Shown here: positions 33,214 to 47,530 of the stretch, one piece after another
Position numbering within the stretch: position 1 is the stretch's first letter
Layout of the letters: each line of letters opens with the position of its first letter
Source: Candidatus Cloacimonadota bacterium
GTDB lineage: Bacteria > Cloacimonadota > Cloacimonadia > G963667145
NCBI GenBank assembly: GCA_963667255.1
Contig: OY762940.1
Span: 1,344,001 to 1,408,000, forward strand
Reading direction: 5' to 3'
Length of the DNA: 64,000 nucleotides
Notes under the pieces: model-generated
The model's database searches: none
What the model saw: only the letters and a program-made list of their open reading frames with translations
What the model was told of the DNA's origin: nothing
Position numbers and translations under genes: made by a program

Positions 33214-34737
33214 CTATCTCACTTGCTCCATTTCGTCACATATTTTCTGAACTTCTCTAAAATCAACCTTACCGCTACCCATAAGCGGAATCTCTTTTAG
33301 CACTATCTGCTTTTTGGGTATATAAATCGCTGTAAACCCTTTGGAATTTAGATGTGTTCTCAACTTATTCAAATTTGTCCTTTTGGTTACAGCTATAGCC
33401 AAAGCAGACCCCTTTTTTGCAGCCAACAGCTCCACTACACAATACAAAACAGTATCGGGGAAAAAGTCTTGCAACGCATTCTCGACGGCAACCATACTTA
33501 CCATCTCTCCGCCGATTTTGACAAATCTCTTCAATCTGCCACGATGCCACAAAAAACCGTCCTCATCCAAAACTCCCATATCGCCCGTGTCATACCAGCC
33601 ATTGTGCATATGATAACTGGTCTCTTCTACATCCCGATAGTATCCTTGCATAATGTTATCGCCACGAAGCATAATCTTGCCTTCGCTCCCAACCGGCAAC
33701 TTCTCTCCAGAATCTATGCCTACTATCTTCACTTCCACTCCGGGCAACGGCTTCCCCAAACTGCCGGGCTTATGAAACTCCCTGTTATTTGTGGAAACTA
33801 CAGGCGAAGCCTCCGTCACTCCGTATCCTTGCCACACCTCTTTACCAAAACGATTAAGATATTCCAACCGCACATTTTCCGGCAGATTATCCGCTCCGGA
33901 AACCATAACTTTCAAAGAATCAAAAGTGTTGTCATCGGCTTTACTCAAATACGACCTAAAAAATGACGGAGTTGCCACTAAATAAGTAGCCTTATGTTTA
34001 GCGATGGATTTGCATATTTTCTTATATTCCAAAGGATTGGGGTGAGTAACAATCGTGCATCCAAAAGAAATCGGTAGCCAAAACATAGTGGTAAATCCGA
34101 ACACATGAAACAGAGGCAAACAAGAAAGAAAAATCTCATTTTCATCCATCTCCAACACCTGAGGGATGCTCACTAATTGTTGCGAAATATTTTTGTGGGT
34201 CAAAGGGACAGCCTTAGGAGTCTTCTCGCTACCTGAAGTAAACAAAATCACCACAATCTCATCCTCGCTACCTATGTGAATCATTTGCTTTATAAAGGAG
34301 GTGGTAAGTTTGGCAATCACTCCCGCTTTTACCTTGGAAAATAAAGAGATATTTTCAATAAACTCTTCGATAAAAATCATTCCCGGCAAAGGCTCTAACT
34401 CCAGCTTCTCTAAAAGAGCAGAAGAAGTTATTATCAAATCGAAATTACATTTTTTGCGGGCAAATACGGAATTTTTGATAGCTCCGGTCGAATAATTAAT
34501 AATCACGGGAACTTTATCCGCCATCAGAGTAGCAATAATGGCTATCATACAGCCACCAGAAGTCGGTATCATTATCCCAATATTTTTCTCTTCATACAGA
34601 GCAATTTTGTCTTTCAAGATAATACTGGCAATTAAAGCCTTGGTATAGCTGATTCCTTTACCAGTCGTCCCATCAATGAAAGCTACTTTATCCTTTTGTT
34701 TTTTAGCAACTTCAACAAACATTTCTTGCAAAATCAT
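33214..34737 (-). CDS. Adenylate-forming enzyme, Aas-like (paralogue 2)
   Basis: LFTSGSEKTPKAV, QGYGVTEASP, WYDTGD and GSGKVDF. Confidence 0.85.
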   Translation of the reverse strand: MILQEMFVEVAKKQKDKVAFIDGTTGKGISYTKALIASIILKDKIALYEEKNIGIMIPTSGGCMIAIIATLMADKVPVIINYSTGAIKNSVFARKKCNFDLIITSSALLEKLELEPLPGMIFIEEFIENISLFSKVKAGVIAKLTTSFIKQMIHIGSEDEIVVILFTSGSEKTPKAVPLTHKNISQQLVSIPQVLEMDENEIFLSCLPLFHVFGFTTMFWLPISFGCTIVTHPNPLEYKKICKSIAKHKATYLVATPSFFRSYLSKADDNTFDSLKVMVSGADNLPENVRLEYLNRFGKEVWQGYGVTEASPVVSTNNREFHKPGSLGKPLPGVEVKIVGIDSGEKLPVGSEGKIMLRGDNIMQGYYRDVEETSYHMHNGWYDTGDMGVLDEDGFLWHRGRLKRFVKIGGEMVSMVAVENALQDFFPDTVLYCVVELLAAKKGSALAIAVTKRTNLNKLRTHLNSKGFTAIYIPKKQIVLKEIPLMGSGKVDFREVQKICDEMEQVR

Positions 34738-34791
34738 TTAGACAAGCCCCCTCTCCAAAATTTCATTACTAACATAAAGTTGAACCCAATC

Positions 34792-36345
34792 CTAACTCTT
34801 CTCGTTGCACTCATTTTGAACAGACTTGAAATCAACCTTGCCACTGCCCAAGATAGGAATATCATCCAGAATAAAAAGTTTGGACGGCAAACTGATGGAA
34901 CTAATGCCGTTTTTCACCAAAAACTTTTTGATTTCCAAAAGGTTACATTCTTGGTTAACAGCCAATCCTACACAAGAACTGCCGTCTTCCTGCTTAATCT
35001 CCACCGCACAATAAGAAACTTCCGGTGGGAAAAACTTCTGCAAAGCCACCTCAACAACAACCAGACTAACCATTTCACCACCAATTTTCATAAATCTTTT
35101 AGCTCTACCTCTGTGCCAAATATAACCCTCTTCATCAATAATCGCAATATCTCCTGTGTCATACCAGCCGTCTTTTAGGGAACTTCCATCCAATTTTTCA
35201 TCAACAAGGTAACCATTCATCACATTCTCGCCCTTTACCAAAAGCCTACCTTCCTGACCATTGGGGAGCTCATTCTCAGACTCTCTCCCCACAACTTTGA
35301 CCTGCACACCAGGCAATTGCCTGCCGATACTACCAGGCTTGTGATAAGCAGATGTGTTCGTGCTGATAACAGGCGAAGCCTCGGTCACTCCGTATCCTTC
35401 GCAAAGAGTTTTCCCAAATTTATCATAATAAGCCATACGAACGCCCTCAGGCAATTTGTCGGCACCGCAAATCATTATGCGGACAGTATCAAAAGTGTCG
35501 GAATTGGATTTGGGCAAATACGCTTTAAAAAACACAGGTGTTCCCGTCATAAAAGAAATTTTGTATTGGGGCACAGTCTGACATACCAATTTATAATCCA
35601 AGGGGTTAGCCACAGTTACCATCGTAGCACCCAAGGAGATAGGCAACCAAAAATTAGTGGTAAATCCGAAACTGTGAAACAACGGAAGAGAAGACAAAAA
35701 GATATCCTTGTCGGTTAAATCAAGTATCTTGGGAATCGCTACCAACTGAGAAACAATATTATTGTGAGAAAGCGGAACAACTTTCGGTTCGGACTCACTA
35801 CCTGTCGTCAAGAGCATCACCGCCCAATCTTCACCGCCTCTTCTGTGAAACTCAGACAAAATTTTTCTCGAAGATTTTTTGCTTTTCCAAAGAGCTTTGA
35901 TTTTGTCCATAAAAGTAACATTGCCAAGGAAATCCTCAACCATAACCATCTTATCTATCGGCTCAATCTCCAATTTTTCCAAAAGTTTCTCGGAAGTGAT
36001 GACCACATCCAATTTGCACTTTTTAATTGCATACAAACTATTAGCAATCGCACCCGTTGAATAATTAATCAGCACAGGCACTTTGCCCGACAAAAGAACA
36101 GCAATACAGACCAACATTCCACCTGGAGATGTCGGTATCATCACGCCTACCCTCTTCCCCGAGAGCTTTTCTATCTCTTTTGCCAACATCAACACGGCTA
36201 CCAAAGATTTGGAATAACTAAGTTTTTTGCCACTCGTTGTATCAATGAAAGCTGTTTTGCTCCCAAATTTTTTTACAGTTTCTAAATAAATTTCTACCAA
36301 TGAATTATTCAAAATATCTCCCTTTTTGGACACGCCACTATCCAT
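34792..36345 (-). CDS. Adenylate-forming enzyme, Aas-like (paralogue 1)
   Basis: LLTTGSESEPKVV, EGYGVTEASP, WYDTGD and GSGKVDF. Confidence 0.85.
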   Translation of the reverse strand: MDSGVSKKGDILNNSLVEIYLETVKKFGSKTAFIDTTSGKKLSYSKSLVAVLMLAKEIEKLSGKRVGVMIPTSPGGMLVCIAVLLSGKVPVLINYSTGAIANSLYAIKKCKLDVVITSEKLLEKLEIEPIDKMVMVEDFLGNVTFMDKIKALWKSKKSSRKILSEFHRRGGEDWAVMLLTTGSESEPKVVPLSHNNIVSQLVAIPKILDLTDKDIFLSSLPLFHSFGFTTNFWLPISLGATMVTVANPLDYKLVCQTVPQYKISFMTGTPVFFKAYLPKSNSDTFDTVRIMICGADKLPEGVRMAYYDKFGKTLCEGYGVTEASPVISTNTSAYHKPGSIGRQLPGVQVKVVGRESENELPNGQEGRLLVKGENVMNGYLVDEKLDGSSLKDGWYDTGDIAIIDEEGYIWHRGRAKRFMKIGGEMVSLVVVEVALQKFFPPEVSYCAVEIKQEDGSSCVGLAVNQECNLLEIKKFLVKNGISSISLPSKLFILDDIPILGSGKVDFKSVQNECNEKS

Positions 36346-41776: not shown

Positions 41777-42229
41777 CTATTGCTTCGTATAAACATATGC
41801 ACCTGTCCAGCTGGAAGAACTCGCTGAAAGATACAATTTTGAATTCTCAACCTTATAATAACAAAAATATGCAGAAGAGCCACTTGATGGAGTTCCAGCA
41901 ACACCATTAGTATATTTTGTTCTAGTATAAGTATAAGATCCTTGCCCAATTTTCGGACTGGAACTTGTGTTGACAGTATATGTTCCAGTTTGAGTTTCTA
42001 AAGTATAATTATTATCATCTGTAATAGATGTTTTGAGAGAATTTGTAAAAGACATATTGCTATTGTAAGTTACTTTTTCATACTCACTACTTGATGAGCG
42101 AACCCAAGTCCCAACTAACTCATTTGTAGAGCTACTGGTGCTACTATCGTCATCATCGTTCTCAAAAATATTACATCCACAGATACCCAACACCATCATC
42201 AACATTCCTAAAATTATTACTTTCTTCAT
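41777..42229 (-). CDS. Small lipoprotein (lipocalin-like, LVGTW motif)
   Basis: Signal peptide II MKKVIILGMLMMVLGICGC, then an acidic/Ser linker and ELVGTW. Confidence 0.7.
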   Translation of the reverse strand: MKKVIILGMLMMVLGICGCNIFENDDDDSSTSSSTNELVGTWVRSSSSEYEKVTYNSNMSFTNSLKTSITDDNNYTLETQTGTYTVNTSSSPKIGQGSYTYTRTKYTNGVAGTPSSGSSAYFCYYKVENSKLYLSASSSSWTGAYVYTKQ

Positions 42230-42308: not shown

Positions 42309-44957
42309 CTACTTCTCCATAACTATACGGAAACCGTCGTAGTAGAGGCGGTAACTCGGATTGGTACCGCGACGGTCGACAACACGGCAATAGGGGTCGT
42401 TGACGAGCCAAAAGCCACCACGACACACGCGATACGAGCCTCTGCTTGCTCCCGTAGGGTCGCTTACTGCGGCACTGCTATAAGCTCCATACAAATCAGA
42501 GCACCATTCCCCAACATTACCACTCATATCATATATCCCCAATTCATTAGCTTTTTTTGTCCCCACCTCGTGCGTTTTGCCACCTGCATTATCCTCATAC
42601 CAAGCTATTTCACCTATACTATTGCTCCCAGAGTAAGTATAGCCTTTGCTTTTATTGCCTCCTCTGGCAACAAACTCCCACTCAGCTTCTGTAGGTAGTC
42701 TGTATTTATCTGTGCCTTCCTTTTGGTTGAGTTTGGTGATAAACTCTTGAATATCGTTCCAAGAAACTTGTTCCACAGGTAAATTATCGCCTTTCCAATT
42801 AGAAGGATTAGAACCCATCACTGCTACCCATTGCTTTTGGGTTACTTCATATTTGCCTATGTAATAATCTTTAGTAAGTGTCACTTGATGAACTGGTTTT
42901 TCGTCGCTATCCCCTGAGGTAGATCCCATCATAAAAGTGCCTGCTTCTACCAAAACAAATTCCATACCGATGGAGTTGACCATTTTAGTGCTAAAATTCC
43001 TCACAGAACTTTCAGTGATTTTACTATCTTTTTTGCCAATCACTTTCCAATAATATGTAGTTCCATAATTCAAACTGCTTAAAATGTAATTGTTAGCAGT
43101 AATGTTTGTAGCAATTTTGCTATAACTACCAAGAGAAGTTCCCAAATAGACCTCATAATATTCTGCATTGCCTGTCCAAGATAAATTAATACTCAAATCT
43201 TGATTGGTAGCACCATTGGTTGGTGAAGTTAGATTAACATCAATTTCTTCAGTTTTTGTAGTAAAACTTCTTATCTCGCTTTCTCCGCTTTTACCATCTT
43301 TTTTGCCAATCACTTTCCAATAATAAGTAGTTCCATAATTCAAACCTGTTTTAGTATAACTGTTTCCTGAAAGTCCACTAGCTATTCTGCTAAGGCTTGA
43401 CGAAGTTGTTCCCATATAAACATCATAAGTAGAGGCTGTGCCAGTCCATGTTAGAGTAACATTAGTGGATTGATTGGTAGCAGCATTGGCTGGAGAGGAA
43501 GCAAATACAGAAACACCATCTTTTGCACAAGCAAGTCTAAATCCTACACCATTTTCACTCTCTAAAGATGAAGAACCATAACGAAAATCAAAGCGACAAC
43601 TAACACTAGAATTAACAAAACAACCCCCTCTACGGACTCGAGTTGTTCCGCTATTTGGACCAGTTGGGTCTATTTGACTACCGCTGCTATAGCTATTATA
43701 CCAATCTGAACACAGTTCCCAAACATTACCACTCATATCATAAATTCCCAGTTCATTGGCATTTTTTTGTCCTACCTTATTTGTTGAACTTGTATTTTCT
43801 TTATACCAAGCAACATTTCCAATAGTGTTACTGCCTGAATAAGTATATCCTTTACTATTATTTCCACCTCGGAAAGCAAATTCCCATTCTGCTTCAGTAG
43901 GTAATTTATATTTGTTAGTTCCAAATAAAACATTTAAAAAATCAGCATAAGCTTTTGCTCCATACCAAGTAATTTCAACAGCAGGATATTTTTCCTTATA
44001 GTTTTTTACATATAAATAACCATTTGAAAGCCCTATTTGACATCCACCATCATTTAAATCTAATAATTCATTACCATTATAACTGACAGATGACGAGCTA
44101 AAACTTAACCCACTAATATTATTTCTAGCCCAATTATATACTTTCACAACCTCCTCATTAGTTACTTCATATTTTCCTATATAAAAATCATTACTAATAG
44201 TTACTGTGTGAATAGGAGAAGAATAATAAGAACTAATTGAGGAGCCCATCTGAAAAGATCCAGCTTTCACCAGAACTAAATTTAAATCAATATTTATTGA
44301 ATTCCCCTCTTTTTTCGTGGTAAAACTCCAAATATCACTTGTTTTATTTTCATCCCCTTTGGCTACGACTTTCCAATAGTAAGTTGTAAGATAGTTTAAA
44401 TTACTTTTTGTGTAACTATTACTGGTAATATTACTAGATATTCTACTCAAACTTGAGGAACTTGTCCCAAAATAAACATCATATTTTTCGGCATTCCCCG
44501 TCCAAGTTAATGTTATGCTTGTTGTTTGGTTGGTTGCCCCATTAGTGGGAGAAGATAAATTTACACTTGTCTCATTGTTCTCAGTAGTAAAATTTCTAAT
44601 AGAACTCTCGTTACTCTCACTTCCTTTTTTCCCCACCACTTTCCAATAATATTTAGTTTTATAGTCCAAATTGTATTTTGTATAACTCGTATTGGACAAA
44701 TTACTAGCTATTTTGCTGAGATTATACGAGCTATTCCCCAAATACAAATCATAAGTAGTAGCTGTTCCAGTCCATTGAAAAGTCACATTTATAGGTTGAT
44801 TAGTTGCTCCTGAAATAGGAGAGTTTAAATAAATTGCTATATTTTCATTTGTTTGCTCTTCATTGTGATCGTCATCATCACTACCGAAAATATCCTTACA
44901 CCCCAAGAATGCAAAAAGTAGTGTAGTAATTATACATAAACCAAGTATTTTTTTCAC
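42309..44957 (-). CDS. Lipoprotein with (FN3-like)2-FGE-sulfatase-(FN3-like)2-FGE-sulfatase architecture; candidate DGR target
   Basis: Lipobox FAFLGC; four SPxxGATNQ...YYWKV repeats; two copies of FQMG/FMMG...IGKYEVT...LPTEAEWEF...GIYDMSGNV...RGG...GFR. Confidence 0.85.
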   Translation of the reverse strand: MKKILGLCIITTLLFAFLGCKDIFGSDDDDHNEEQTNENIAIYLNSPISGATNQPINVTFQWTGTATTYDLYLGNSSYNLSKIASNLSNTSYTKYNLDYKTKYYWKVVGKKGSESNESSIRNFTTENNETSVNLSSPTNGATNQTTSITLTWTGNAEKYDVYFGTSSSSLSRISSNITSNSYTKSNLNYLTTYYWKVVAKGDENKTSDIWSFTTKKEGNSINIDLNLVLVKAGSFQMGSSISSYYSSPIHTVTISNDFYIGKYEVTNEEVVKVYNWARNNISGLSFSSSSVSYNGNELLDLNDGGCQIGLSNGYLYVKNYKEKYPAVEITWYGAKAYADFLNVLFGTNKYKLPTEAEWEFAFRGGNNSKGYTYSGSNTIGNVAWYKENTSSTNKVGQKNANELGIYDMSGNVWELCSDWYNSYSSGSQIDPTGPNSGTTRVRRGGCFVNSSVSCRFDFRYGSSSLESENGVGFRLACAKDGVSVFASSPANAATNQSTNVTLTWTGTASTYDVYMGTTSSSLSRIASGLSGNSYTKTGLNYGTTYYWKVIGKKDGKSGESEIRSFTTKTEEIDVNLTSPTNGATNQDLSINLSWTGNAEYYEVYLGTSLGSYSKIATNITANNYILSSLNYGTTYYWKVIGKKDSKITESSVRNFSTKMVNSIGMEFVLVEAGTFMMGSTSGDSDEKPVHQVTLTKDYYIGKYEVTQKQWVAVMGSNPSNWKGDNLPVEQVSWNDIQEFITKLNQKEGTDKYRLPTEAEWEFVARGGNKSKGYTYSGSNSIGEIAWYEDNAGGKTHEVGTKKANELGIYDMSGNVGEWCSDLYGAYSSAAVSDPTGASRGSYRVCRGGFWLVNDPYCRVVDRRGTNPSYRLYYDGFRIVMEK
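42327..42440 (-). other. Candidate DGR variable region (VR)
   Basis: About 57% GC in an approximately 30% GC gene; 33 of 36 codons end in C/T and none ends in A, at the C-terminal RGGxW...GFR segment of a CLec/FGE fold. Confidence 0.65.
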
Positions 44958-46711
44958 CTTCCCTCCTCTTTTGAATTAATTTGTTTTTTGTCTTTGCAGT
45001 CTATTGTATTAGCCTCAATGATGCTACTACTGGATACTTGAGTAGGTATAGAGGTAGAATAAGAATTTATGCCACTAATCACTCCCGTAGTTCCATCAAT
45101 AGAAAATACATGCCAATAGTATTTACTGGAAGCAGTTCCTGAAGGAGCAGTAAAGGTTTTTAGCAAGGCATTATCTCCATACACTTTTACACAAGCACCA
45201 GAATATGGCAAGGAACTACTGCCAGCGTAGTGATGAACAGAAAAATAATATTTACCTTCAACCATTTTGTAAATAGTTATAGTCTCTGGACCGTAGGAAG
45301 AAATATCATCAACATCCAAACTATTATAAGGGACTGTAGAACTATTACTACTCGAATATTTACTACGATAGTAAGTATGATAAATAGTTCCATTAATTCT
45401 TGGTGTCCAAAGATGAGCATCCAAATCACTTGGATTTTGACCCCAAGATAAAACAATCCTAATTTCCTTTAAACTACTAGTTGTACCACCAACAGAAGAA
45501 AATTCAATATTATAGACAGAAAGAGAATTATTCTTTACTTTTTTTAACACTTTCACATAATAATATCCTGGCGTAGAACCAGAATTAAAAGTGATTTTCT
45601 CACTATCCGAACTAGTCGAATTAGATCTTTGTAACAGCATTCCAGATGGAGAATACAATTCTAAGTCTAAATCTCCATTACTATTTTTAAAATCAATTTT
45701 TACAGATATTTCATTATTGGCATTGGCATAAGTTTTAAAATAATCAACATCATCATCAAAAATAATAAGTGAATTTTCTTTGTTTCTCGATAATTCTGTA
45801 GCTTTTCCCATTGAATTATTAGGTTCATATGGATCACATGCTGACGAAGGAACAACTTTAAAAATGGTTAGAGCTCTTTTTATGCGAGTATTAGCTTCTT
45901 TCACATAAAAATAGCCATCCAAATCTATATTACTCAAATTCTCTTTTTCTATTATTTTTGAAATCAAATTATTAATATATTCTTCGCTTACCATTGTTCC
46001 AATACCAATAATAGCACTTGATACTGACGGAGTAAGAGTGGCAACACTTATTGCAATACTTGTTCCAGATACTAAATTGGCTAATTTAAGTTTAACAAGC
46101 TCAGTAAATTCAGCCAAATTAAGCCTATACCAAGTATAACTTTCTGATACATTAGCTTCATTTCCCATCTCCAACTTTGCCATTTTATACTGATTAAAGG
46201 CAATATCTATTTGTGACTTAGCTATCATAACAACACTAAAAAGAGCAATTGTTGTTCCTAATATGAAAATCTCTCGGGGAGCATTAATAGAACTTGCATT
46301 TATGTTTCTATTCCCCAAAATGGAAGAATTAGCCTCAACAACTGGATCCCCCATATAAATATAAGGTGCATAAGTATCTGTTTCATCATATACCATAATC
46401 ATAGTTCTTCCATTTTTTGCGACTGCAGAAACCTCAATATTTTGCAGTTTTTCGCCAGATGCATTAGTAACCGTTACCTTTACTGGCTTACTTAATTCTG
46501 AAGAAGTAAATTGATAACTTCCCAACTCATCTGTTTTACCTTGAAAAGATTGTACTCCTTCTTGAGTAAAAGTCCCAGATGTTCCACTACTTCCGCCAGT
46601 TCCATCAGTACCACTTCCTGCATCATTCCCTACAGGACTAACACTCTTCTCACCACAAGCCATAAGCAATACCACTAAAATTAACAAAACTAAATTCAAA
46701 CCCTTTTTCAT
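44954..46711 (-). CDS. Lipoprotein with a PPC-like domain and a C-terminal YfaP/DUF2135-like domain
   Basis: Lipobox LLMAC; DPYEPNNS...DVDYF...DLDLELY (PPC-like); IVLSWGQNPSDLDAHL...LDVDDISSYGPETITI. The ATG at 46711 has an AGGAG RBS. Confidence 0.7.
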   Translation of the reverse strand: MKKGLNLVLLILVVLLMACGEKSVSPVGNDAGSGTDGTGGSSGTSGTFTQEGVQSFQGKTDELGSYQFTSSELSKPVKVTVTNASGEKLQNIEVSAVAKNGRTMIMVYDETDTYAPYIYMGDPVVEANSSILGNRNINASSINAPREIFILGTTIALFSVVMIAKSQIDIAFNQYKMAKLEMGNEANVSESYTWYRLNLAEFTELVKLKLANLVSGTSIAISVATLTPSVSSAIIGIGTMVSEEYINNLISKIIEKENLSNIDLDGYFYVKEANTRIKRALTIFKVVPSSACDPYEPNNSMGKATELSRNKENSLIIFDDDVDYFKTYANANNEISVKIDFKNSNGDLDLELYSPSGMLLQRSNSTSSDSEKITFNSGSTPGYYYVKVLKKVKNNSLSVYNIEFSSVGGTTSSLKEIRIVLSWGQNPSDLDAHLWTPRINGTIYHTYYRSKYSSSNSSTVPYNSLDVDDISSYGPETITIYKMVEGKYYFSVHHYAGSSSLPYSGACVKVYGDNALLKTFTAPSGTASSKYYWHVFSIDGTTGVISGINSYSTSIPTQVSSSSIIEANTIDCKDKKQINSKEEGR

Positions 46712-46735: not shown

Positions 46736-46773
46736 AAAAAAAGAGACAGCTCGGTAAAACCGAACTATCTCTT
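46736..46773 (-). terminator. Leader (attenuator-type) intrinsic terminator just upstream of the lipoprotein operon
   Basis: Minus strand AAGAGATAGTTCGGT-TTT-ACCGAGCTGTCTCTT-TTTTT: a 15-bp stem with 2 G-U pairs and a U7 tract, ending 24 nt before the ATG. Confidence 0.8.
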
Positions 46774-46798: not shown

Positions 46799-46909
46799 CT
46801 AAGCCACCAGTCCCTTGACTGACCAACTGACCAACTGACCAACTGACCAACTGACCAACTGACCAACTGACCAACTGACCAACTGACCAACTGATTTTTT
46901 TATTTTCAT
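46799..46909 (-). CDS. Putative leader peptide spanning the 8-bp repeat (36 aa)
   Basis: MKIKKS(VGQLVSWS)3VKGLVA*. No SD is visible, so translation is unproven. Confidence 0.35.
   Translation of the reverse strand: MKIKKSVGQLVSWSVGQLVSWSVGQLVSWSVKGLVA
46819..46894. repeat. Perfect tandem repeat (CTGACCAA)9.5
   Basis: Nine perfect 8-bp units plus CTGA, read directly from the sequence. Confidence 0.97.
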
Positions 46910-47340
46910 AACGACAGGAGTTAAAAATTTTTTAAATATGTCAACCCAGAATTGCGAAAAATTTACAATGTTGTATCAACACTGTGTTTGGGCTTCCTGC
47001 TACTCTCTCCTCATCCTCATGCCCGTTGTCTATCAAGCACAACGCCTATCTAATTGCTTTACCACTCTTGTGCTTGGGAAATGGGGATTTATTCTTGTTT
47101 TCGTTCTTACCTGTCCTTTTTTTGCCGTAATCTGACCACATAAATTAAGTCTCAAATGATTAGCCGTATTTATGTGTTCAGATGCTATCGTTATGCCAAA
47201 AGATAGACCTACCTCACCAAGCAACTGCTTGACTCCTCTGCAAAAAAACAATCTCGCTATTTGATTAACTACTGCTCATTTATTTATTTATTGTATGCAT
47301 TGGGATAAAGCGTGGCGGTATCTTCTTGCTCCTGCTCTCC

Positions 47341-47447
47341 CTCATCCTCACACAAGTGGGGATCCATTCTTCCTTATCTTCTCAAAAGAAGCAGGTGCTG
47401 ATGTCCCAACCAGTCTCACCGTAGATTCCCGCGTTCGCGAGAATGAG
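47341..47447. repeat. Inverted pair of REP-like 25-bp palindromes
   Basis: CTCATCCTCACACAAGTGGGGATCC (47341-47365) and the reverse complement of 47423-47447, CTCATTCTCGCGAACGCGGGAATCT. Confidence 0.55.
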
Positions 47448-47450
47448 AGG

Positions 47451-47530
47451 GCGGTGATGTGGAAATGAGTGCGGTGGTGCGAGAACAAGAGTGGTGATGC
47501 GAGAATGTAGGTGGTGATGCGGAATAAGGA
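47451..47530. repeat. Degenerate 20-bp tandem repeat x4
   Basis: GYGGTGRTGY-GRRA... units begin at 47451, 47471, 47491 and 47511. Confidence 0.6.

Follow-up and report, generated by a model that had tools for sequence, protein, structure and literature searches.

Orphan VRs are already in print for Treponema: T. denticola isolates that have no core DGR, RT and template both being absent, keep 'leftover' target genes (Nimkulrat et al. 2016, PMC4891356), and a VR signature is by itself no proof of an active DGR. DGRs of Cloacimonadota are mentioned in PMC11661182, and contig-based surveys are described as missing remote DGR targets (PMC8144416). A system of a different kind, the pil1 attenuator of S. 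gallolyticus, has a tandem repeat in a leader ORF followed by a terminator hairpin; one of its reading frames ends well ahead of the hairpin and the other two on or past it (Danne et al. 2014, PMC3894217). Among open-licence papers, we found none on the present genus and none that places repeat-leader attenuators ahead of DGR targets.

The window analysed here, by which we mean the whole stretch of 64,000 nucleotides from a bacterium of the Cloacimonadota (positions 1,344,001 to 1,408,000 of contig OY762940.1, assembly GCA_963667255.1, hereafter G000, with its contig as C1), carries a three-gene block of predicted lipoproteins located between rluB and gpmI (Table 1). The middle gene, predicted to encode a surface protein, is built, in order, of a signal peptide, Ig/FN3-like repeats, a first FGE domain, further repeats and a second FGE domain that ends in a VR; the domain search returns two PF03781 (FGE-sulfatase) stretches. 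The closest solved structure to the C-terminal domain found in a search of the PDB is TvpA (2y3c, E 6e-33), as expected from the FGE-type, TvpA-like fold that an earlier note, made from the letters of this DNA only, had proposed; the VR is, by sequence, the C-terminal part of this C-type-lectin-fold domain. The domain belongs to the fold family of SUMF1/FGE (PF03781) and differs from it in that the first Cys of the FGE Cys pair is missing in the alignment to 6s07. In the formylglycine-generating enzyme this Cys pair has a role in catalysis and, since its first member is absent, a binding role, presumably lectin-like, is more likely for the C-terminal domain than a catalytic one. A motif ahead of the VR at 42513-42505 on the minus strand, GNVGEW, reads GNVGEL in a paralogue at 902 kb and GNVWEW in another at 62.5 kb.

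Table 1. Coordinates of the features of the lipoprotein block and its leader (window numbering).
Feature	Position	Strand	Basis or remark
First gene of the block, predicted lipoprotein	44954..46711	-	ATG at 46711
Lipoprotein gene, predicted, 882 aa	42309..44957	-	lipoprotein-like N-terminal signal read from sequence
First FGE domain, aa 227-476	43530..44279	-	ordinary codon use in tail; internal negative control
C-terminal FGE-type (C-type-lectin fold) domain	42312..42992	-	PDB match and alignment to 6s07
DGR-type variable region (VR), 38 codons	42327..42440	-	codon pattern, template comparison
Constant 3' end past the VR	42309..42326	-	16 of 18 bases identical to the paralogue at G000:C1:62535-62552
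Third gene of the block, 150-aa predicted lipoprotein	41777..42229	-	followed by terminator-like hairpin at 41725-41704
Leader ORF, 36 codons	46799..46909	-	nine copies of an 8-base repeat at 46818-46894
15-pair hairpin with T run, predicted attenuator terminator	46741..46773	-	between leader and first gene

The resemblance to T. denticola is close in several respects. As for TvpA and the leftover targets, the product is a lipoprotein with an FGE-type lectin fold and a C-terminal VR, and there are several targets per genome; as for the leftovers, the VRs differ from the templates of relatives mostly at adenines, in a genome without RT and template. The genus departs from T. denticola in that the core is missing from all six genomes searched and no within-genus template is known. 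Unlike TvpA, the window protein has two FGE domains with the VR on the last only, and it is encoded in a block that is missing from this site in the congeners and that stands behind a repeat-bearing leader. With the intact FGE-target DGRs of the class (loci L094 and L019, with target, HRDC-type gene, RT and template) the locus shares template layout, register and kind of target domain, whereas their template is not cognate (18 of 71 non-adenine sites differ) and the cassette is absent from G000. The leader resembles that of pil1 in repeat, hairpin and frames, but its units are of 8 or 4 bases and not 5, it guards lipoprotein genes, it is present in four copies in G000, and its function is predicted. 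Slightly uncommon are the genus-wide occurrence of young-looking VRs without machinery and their pairing with a predicted on/off leader. The reading that we favour, and hold to be probable, is that of an orphan VR, written fairly recently and now frozen, in a gene whose expression is likely phase-varied.

Codon signature of the tail and its fit to DGR templates

The 36 tail codons at 42434-42327 (minus strand), which encode YRVCRGGFWLVNDPYCRVVDRRGTNPSYRLYYDGFR, end in C (19), T (14) or G (3) and never in A, in a gene in which 248 of the 883 codons are A-ending. The GC content is 92/160 (about 57%) at 42321-42480 and 17/60 at 43021-43080. All these counts, including the 33 codons ending in C or T, had been given in the earlier note and were reproduced here, and the codon pattern also exceeds chance on resampling: synonymous draws with the amino acids fixed and the codon usage of the genome yield a probability of about 1e-4 for no A at the third position and of about 6e-5 for 19 or more C, while 33 or more pyrimidine endings came up in none of 200,000 draws. 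Among 334,245 windows of 36 codons in 683 long ORFs, the tail is the sole one with no A and at least 33 pyrimidines at third positions, a threshold that was set from the tail itself. The contrast is equally visible within the gene, since the 150 upstream codons of the same domain contain 46 that end in A, as compared to 0 of 36 in the tail (Fisher p 1.8e-5), and the equivalent 36 codons of the first FGE domain contain 8 ending in A and 2 in C. The codon pattern of the tail is thus confirmed as genuine.

Comparison with templates of relatives relates this pattern to adenine mutagenesis. Of 30 in-register templates, the best-fitting one, from class relative L019, differs from the tail at 26 of 37 adenines and at 18 of 71 other sites; the corresponding Fisher value for adenine bias, about 1e-5, is a best-of-30 value and is partly due to conserved protein positions. 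Where at least 70% of the templates have an Asn codon, the tail has a codon ending in C or T in 15 of 15 columns, and at the sites with a consensus adenine 24 of 36 are changed in the tail, all of them at codon positions 1 and 2. Nine control FGE tails (three others from G000 and six from congeners) show 32-38 differences per about 68 non-adenine sites; the tail of the 62.5-kb paralogue and that of L029 were excluded from the comparison owing to indels. The template motif is present in 38 of 232 genomes of the phylum, and class relatives carry intact cassettes of FGE target, RT and template, as in L094, which has an FGE target, a gene apparently of HRDC type, a 346-aa RT and a template. A VR/template pair of its own was found in 14 of the 182 related loci examined, and no cognate template for the window gene was among the matches listed in the related-locus scans, the first two of which covered 10 and 7 of 64 parts. 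The AAC/AAT-rich layout that the earlier note had predicted for the template is the Asn-codon layout of true templates of the same phylum, and its proposal that DGR-type adenine mutagenesis produced the tail gains support from the adenine-biased fit to real templates. Judged from these comparisons, the tail is a genuine DGR-written region.

The constant 3' end past the VR would be IMH-like, as judged by position only. The hairpin 3' of the VR is weak and A/T-rich (z -1.9), and 9 of 200 shuffled sequences fold equally well.

DGR machinery and the age of the tails

The G000 assembly is a single contig of 1,587,896 bases, 98.86% complete, with an overlap of 17 bases between its ends. Profile searches of this one genome gave no match to RVT_1 and none to the bAvd accessory, and an HRDC-type accessory was not found on the contig either; the same RVT_1 search matched 16 of 41 relatives, including DGR-type RTs in class relatives. 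A profile of five DGR-type RTs against the six frames of G000 reached a best E of 1.7. With tblastn, 16 RT frames of relatives matched G000 solely beside the CRISPR array; the matching segments are the C-terminal ends of two long fusion proteins with an RT, and we read these matches as an apparent Cas1. A G000-wide scan for a template differing from the VR solely at adenines returned just A-rich noise; weak template matches at 703.6 kb and 1,054 kb proved to be A/C-rich noise within other genes. Outside the chromosome, neither viral nor metagenome contigs contained the VR family or a compatible template in exact-pattern scans, phage records gave no match, and plasmid records matched 7 distant FGE genes, none covering the VR. 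The 64-kb window contains no tRNA, and its part at 38000-52000 matches no Rfam family, hence there is no tRNA integration site.

The tail does not belong to a complete DGR in this assembly. The earlier note was right that the window contains no RT or template, which holds for the entire assembled genome too. Its further suggestion, that a DGR located elsewhere in the genome diversifies the gene in trans at present, does not stand up on a single contig that lacks RT, Avd, HRDC accessory and template, and the absence of RT and template largely leads to the alternative it had named for such a case, a relic. The in-trans idea could be saved by nothing but an element that the assembly lacks. With no such retroelement on the assembled chromosome, the tip is therefore likely frozen today.

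The search was extended to five congeners (G001-G005), each assembled in one contig and 97-99% complete. The template motif and bAvd were found in 0/5, as were matches to the DGR RT query, in a search that had no positive control. An HRDC query gave one weak match in G004 (E 0.007, 25% identity, within a 357-aa frame). G005 is the only congener with an RT, a lone protein of 514 aa (L020:871-2415) that the DGR RT query did not match and that we take to be 'Abi-like', possibly a defence RT. VR-like FGE tails occur in G001, G003, G004 and G005 and not in G002, so that young-looking VRs are present in 5 of 6 genomes of the genus and the machinery in 0 of 6 assemblies. G000 itself has a second VR-bearing FGE lipoprotein, of 265 aa, at G000:C1:62535-63332 (L004:7536-8333, minus strand), whose tail is two codons shorter, has 4 codons ending in A and is partly eroded, and whose stop codon is followed by a perfect 11-pair hairpin. 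Two near-duplicate lipoproteins of G005 (L147:3345-5564 and L148:7239-9470) lie at separate sites and bear differing VR-like tails on a scaffold type that is VR-less in G000, which suggests grafting or retargeting. The best short protein match, P0121 (73%), is another genus-like lipoprotein.

As to the age of the tails, G000 has 36-55% identity to its congeners at four-fold sites of core genes (55% with G001). Were the tail as old as the genus root, the probability of finding no A at third positions would be about 0.03-0.04; the tails of G000 and G001 both have 0/36, for which the joint probability is about 0.01 if the two were written no later than the split; for the G000 tail by itself the value is 0.12. 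The tails of G003 and G004 share 34 of 39 third bases, as compared to 0.64 in core genes (p 0.001), but just 25 of 39 first and 30 of 39 second bases. Such young-looking tails, which do not sit easily with a simple relic, imply either that DGR writing continued after the species split, or that slow-evolving templates were lost several times. To assume a number of independent recent losses is less economical than to assume an element that single-contig assemblies omit.

In the favoured reading of an orphan VR, the sequence points to past retrohoming, in which an RT would have copied an Asn-codon-rich template, altering adenines at codon positions 1 and 2 and leaving C or T at position 3. RT, accessory gene and template are off the assembled chromosome; the DGR may since have been lost, or may have departed with the mobile element that carried it. 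The tail would since have been passed on as an unchanging binding surface, and the cell would alternate between a small number of fixed lectin-like tips instead of making new ones.

Other possible sources of the tail

A DGR on a plasmid, a phage or a missing segment in the same cells, outside the assembly, could still be diversifying the gene in trans. We regard this as unlikely, with a chance that is nevertheless appreciable. The source sample was inspected through two runs (X1 and X2), the only ones found to contain the stretch, which, coming from one sample, are not independent. In both, a contig of 57,042 bases extends across the VR and is identical to it in every letter (depth 58 and 62), and that no variant contig at the VR was found speaks against an active element, although a single allele in contigs does not show absence of variation because contigs drop rare variants. 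Template-like contigs do occur in the sample, a point in favour of such an element: comparison of the runs with the L094 cassette gave at least four, among the 16 of 118 pieces listed. However, their depth is 7-30, not 55-75, and their letters differ from the VR at non-adenine sites. None of the 16 of 118 pieces listed has the cognate letters, two shorter pieces inferred from depth columns (about 38-51) do not fit the VR either, and the RT bins among these listed pieces have a depth of at most 2, at the 80% floor against a distant RT. The expected identity of a true template is about 79% to the VR, which lies under the 80% floor of the VR contig search, and about 80% to the template of L094, so the sensitivity of the L094-based comparison is borderline. 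The lack of a strong hairpin after the VR also counts against ongoing writing, since BPP-1 requires one (PMC3240598).

What keeps an unbinned DGR-carrying element under consideration is the combination of tails that look young in several congeners, although none of the six single-contig assemblies carries a DGR, and a third FGE paralogue that is present in the sample and absent from G000. This paralogue is represented by pieces of 760 and 106 bases that align at window 42473-42909 (85% identity over 357 bases), with depths of 50-54 and 63-67 that resemble those of G000's own pieces (55-59 and 62-77); it was not returned by protein searches. The sample contigs are interrupted at 42880-42929 and within the gene at 62.5 kb, where G000 has no repeated 31-mer, and from these breaks it follows that the third paralogue has exact stretches in common with this gene as well as with that of the window. 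The lengths of two contigs, 57,042 and 3,857, exactly match the next internal repeats of G000. The paralogue may belong to another organism, which weakens its weight here; lying in the sample but outside G000, it nonetheless indicates that the assembly is not the whole story. A wider scheme, in which a mobile-element DGR circulating in the genus rewrites, in trans or in passing, chromosomal surface lipoproteins switched by repeat-leader attenuators, appears to us similarly doubtful. If it were true, hypermutation would be outsourced to a visitor, the host (genomes of 1.5-1.6 Mb) retaining the targets and the switches, and surveys confined to chromosomes would be overlooking a class of in-trans DGR activity, should the RT come from an unbinned element.

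Less probable still is that the tail arrived ready-made, as an FGE domain or a whole block imported or gene-converted from a DGR-carrying strain, no DGR having acted at this locus. The block is missing between rluB and gpmI in 5 of 5 congeners (the two genes are adjacent in four, and a different gene lies between them in G003), and the VR gene of each congener is found at a different site. The GC content of the C-terminal domain (about 41%), which is higher than that of the remainder of the gene, and the VR-like tails that the two G005 copies bear on the other type of FGE scaffold also fit an import. The relatives of the domain argue otherwise: among the matches listed, the closest are from the same genus (70-71% identity, as compared to at most about 64% outside), and in a quick tree the VR-bearing domains of G000, G001, G003 and G004 cluster with moderate support (SH-aLRT 87), which makes any donor a relative. 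A frozen tip would moreover be the result here just as for the orphan VR.

A DGR elsewhere on the G000 chromosome, for which the remote targets known in Treponema (PMC4891356) could provide a precedent, is very improbable given a single contig without RT, Avd, HRDC accessory or template and an RVT_1 search able to detect the RTs of class relatives. An origin of the pattern unrelated to DGRs, be it chance, amino-acid selection or RNA structure, has next to no likelihood in our view, because, although Tyr, Cys, Asn, Asp and Phe codons naturally end in C or T, resampling with these amino acids fixed still leaves the value near 1e-4, the template fit is adenine-biased and the control tails fail.

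Leader attenuator and other features of the genome

The region upstream of the block has the layout of a pil1-type attenuator: a repeat lies within a leader ORF, and the distance between stop codon and terminator depends on the reading frame. The three frames stop 24, 46 and 95 bases past the repeat, and the hairpin begins at about 50; the ORF lister starts the first gene at a GTG (46735) within the terminator tail. The frame now in use stops 26 bases before the hairpin, and the block is accordingly predicted to be OFF. The same leader and terminator precede three other lipoprotein loci of G000 (G000:C1:63582, 898142 and 1480373) and an FGE gene of G001 (L139:6956). The states predicted from their frames are OFF at the window, at 1,480 kb and in G001, and ON at 62.5 kb and 898 kb; at 62.5 kb the leader reads through the hairpin. 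A promoter scan picked no site at the leader. For the orphan VR, this layout makes phase variation of block expression likely: slippage in the 8-base repeat would shift the stop of the leader ORF from 26 bases before the terminator to 4 before it, or beyond, and so turn the block ON.

Further long simple repeats are found at G000:C1:131256 (18 copies of a 5-base unit), 983710 (22 copies of a 5-base unit) and 1329830 (7 copies of a 9-base unit), the first two of which may be additional leader switches. The CRISPR array (G000:C1:836247-844273) comprises 124 repeats of 29 bases and 123 spacers, and is large for a 1.6-Mb genome; against the related loci examined, the 123 spacers gave just matches of 16-20 bases, at chance level. 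Within the window at 33214-36345 and upstream of it (G000:C1:1374107-1380345) lie four tandem paralogues of about 510 aa, presumably acyl-ACP synthetase-like, which are in tandem in G004 too. Finally, short intergenic repeats at window 47130-47181 and 47320-47516 recur at many other sites of G000 and in the congeners, and are possibly miniature mobile or REP-like elements.
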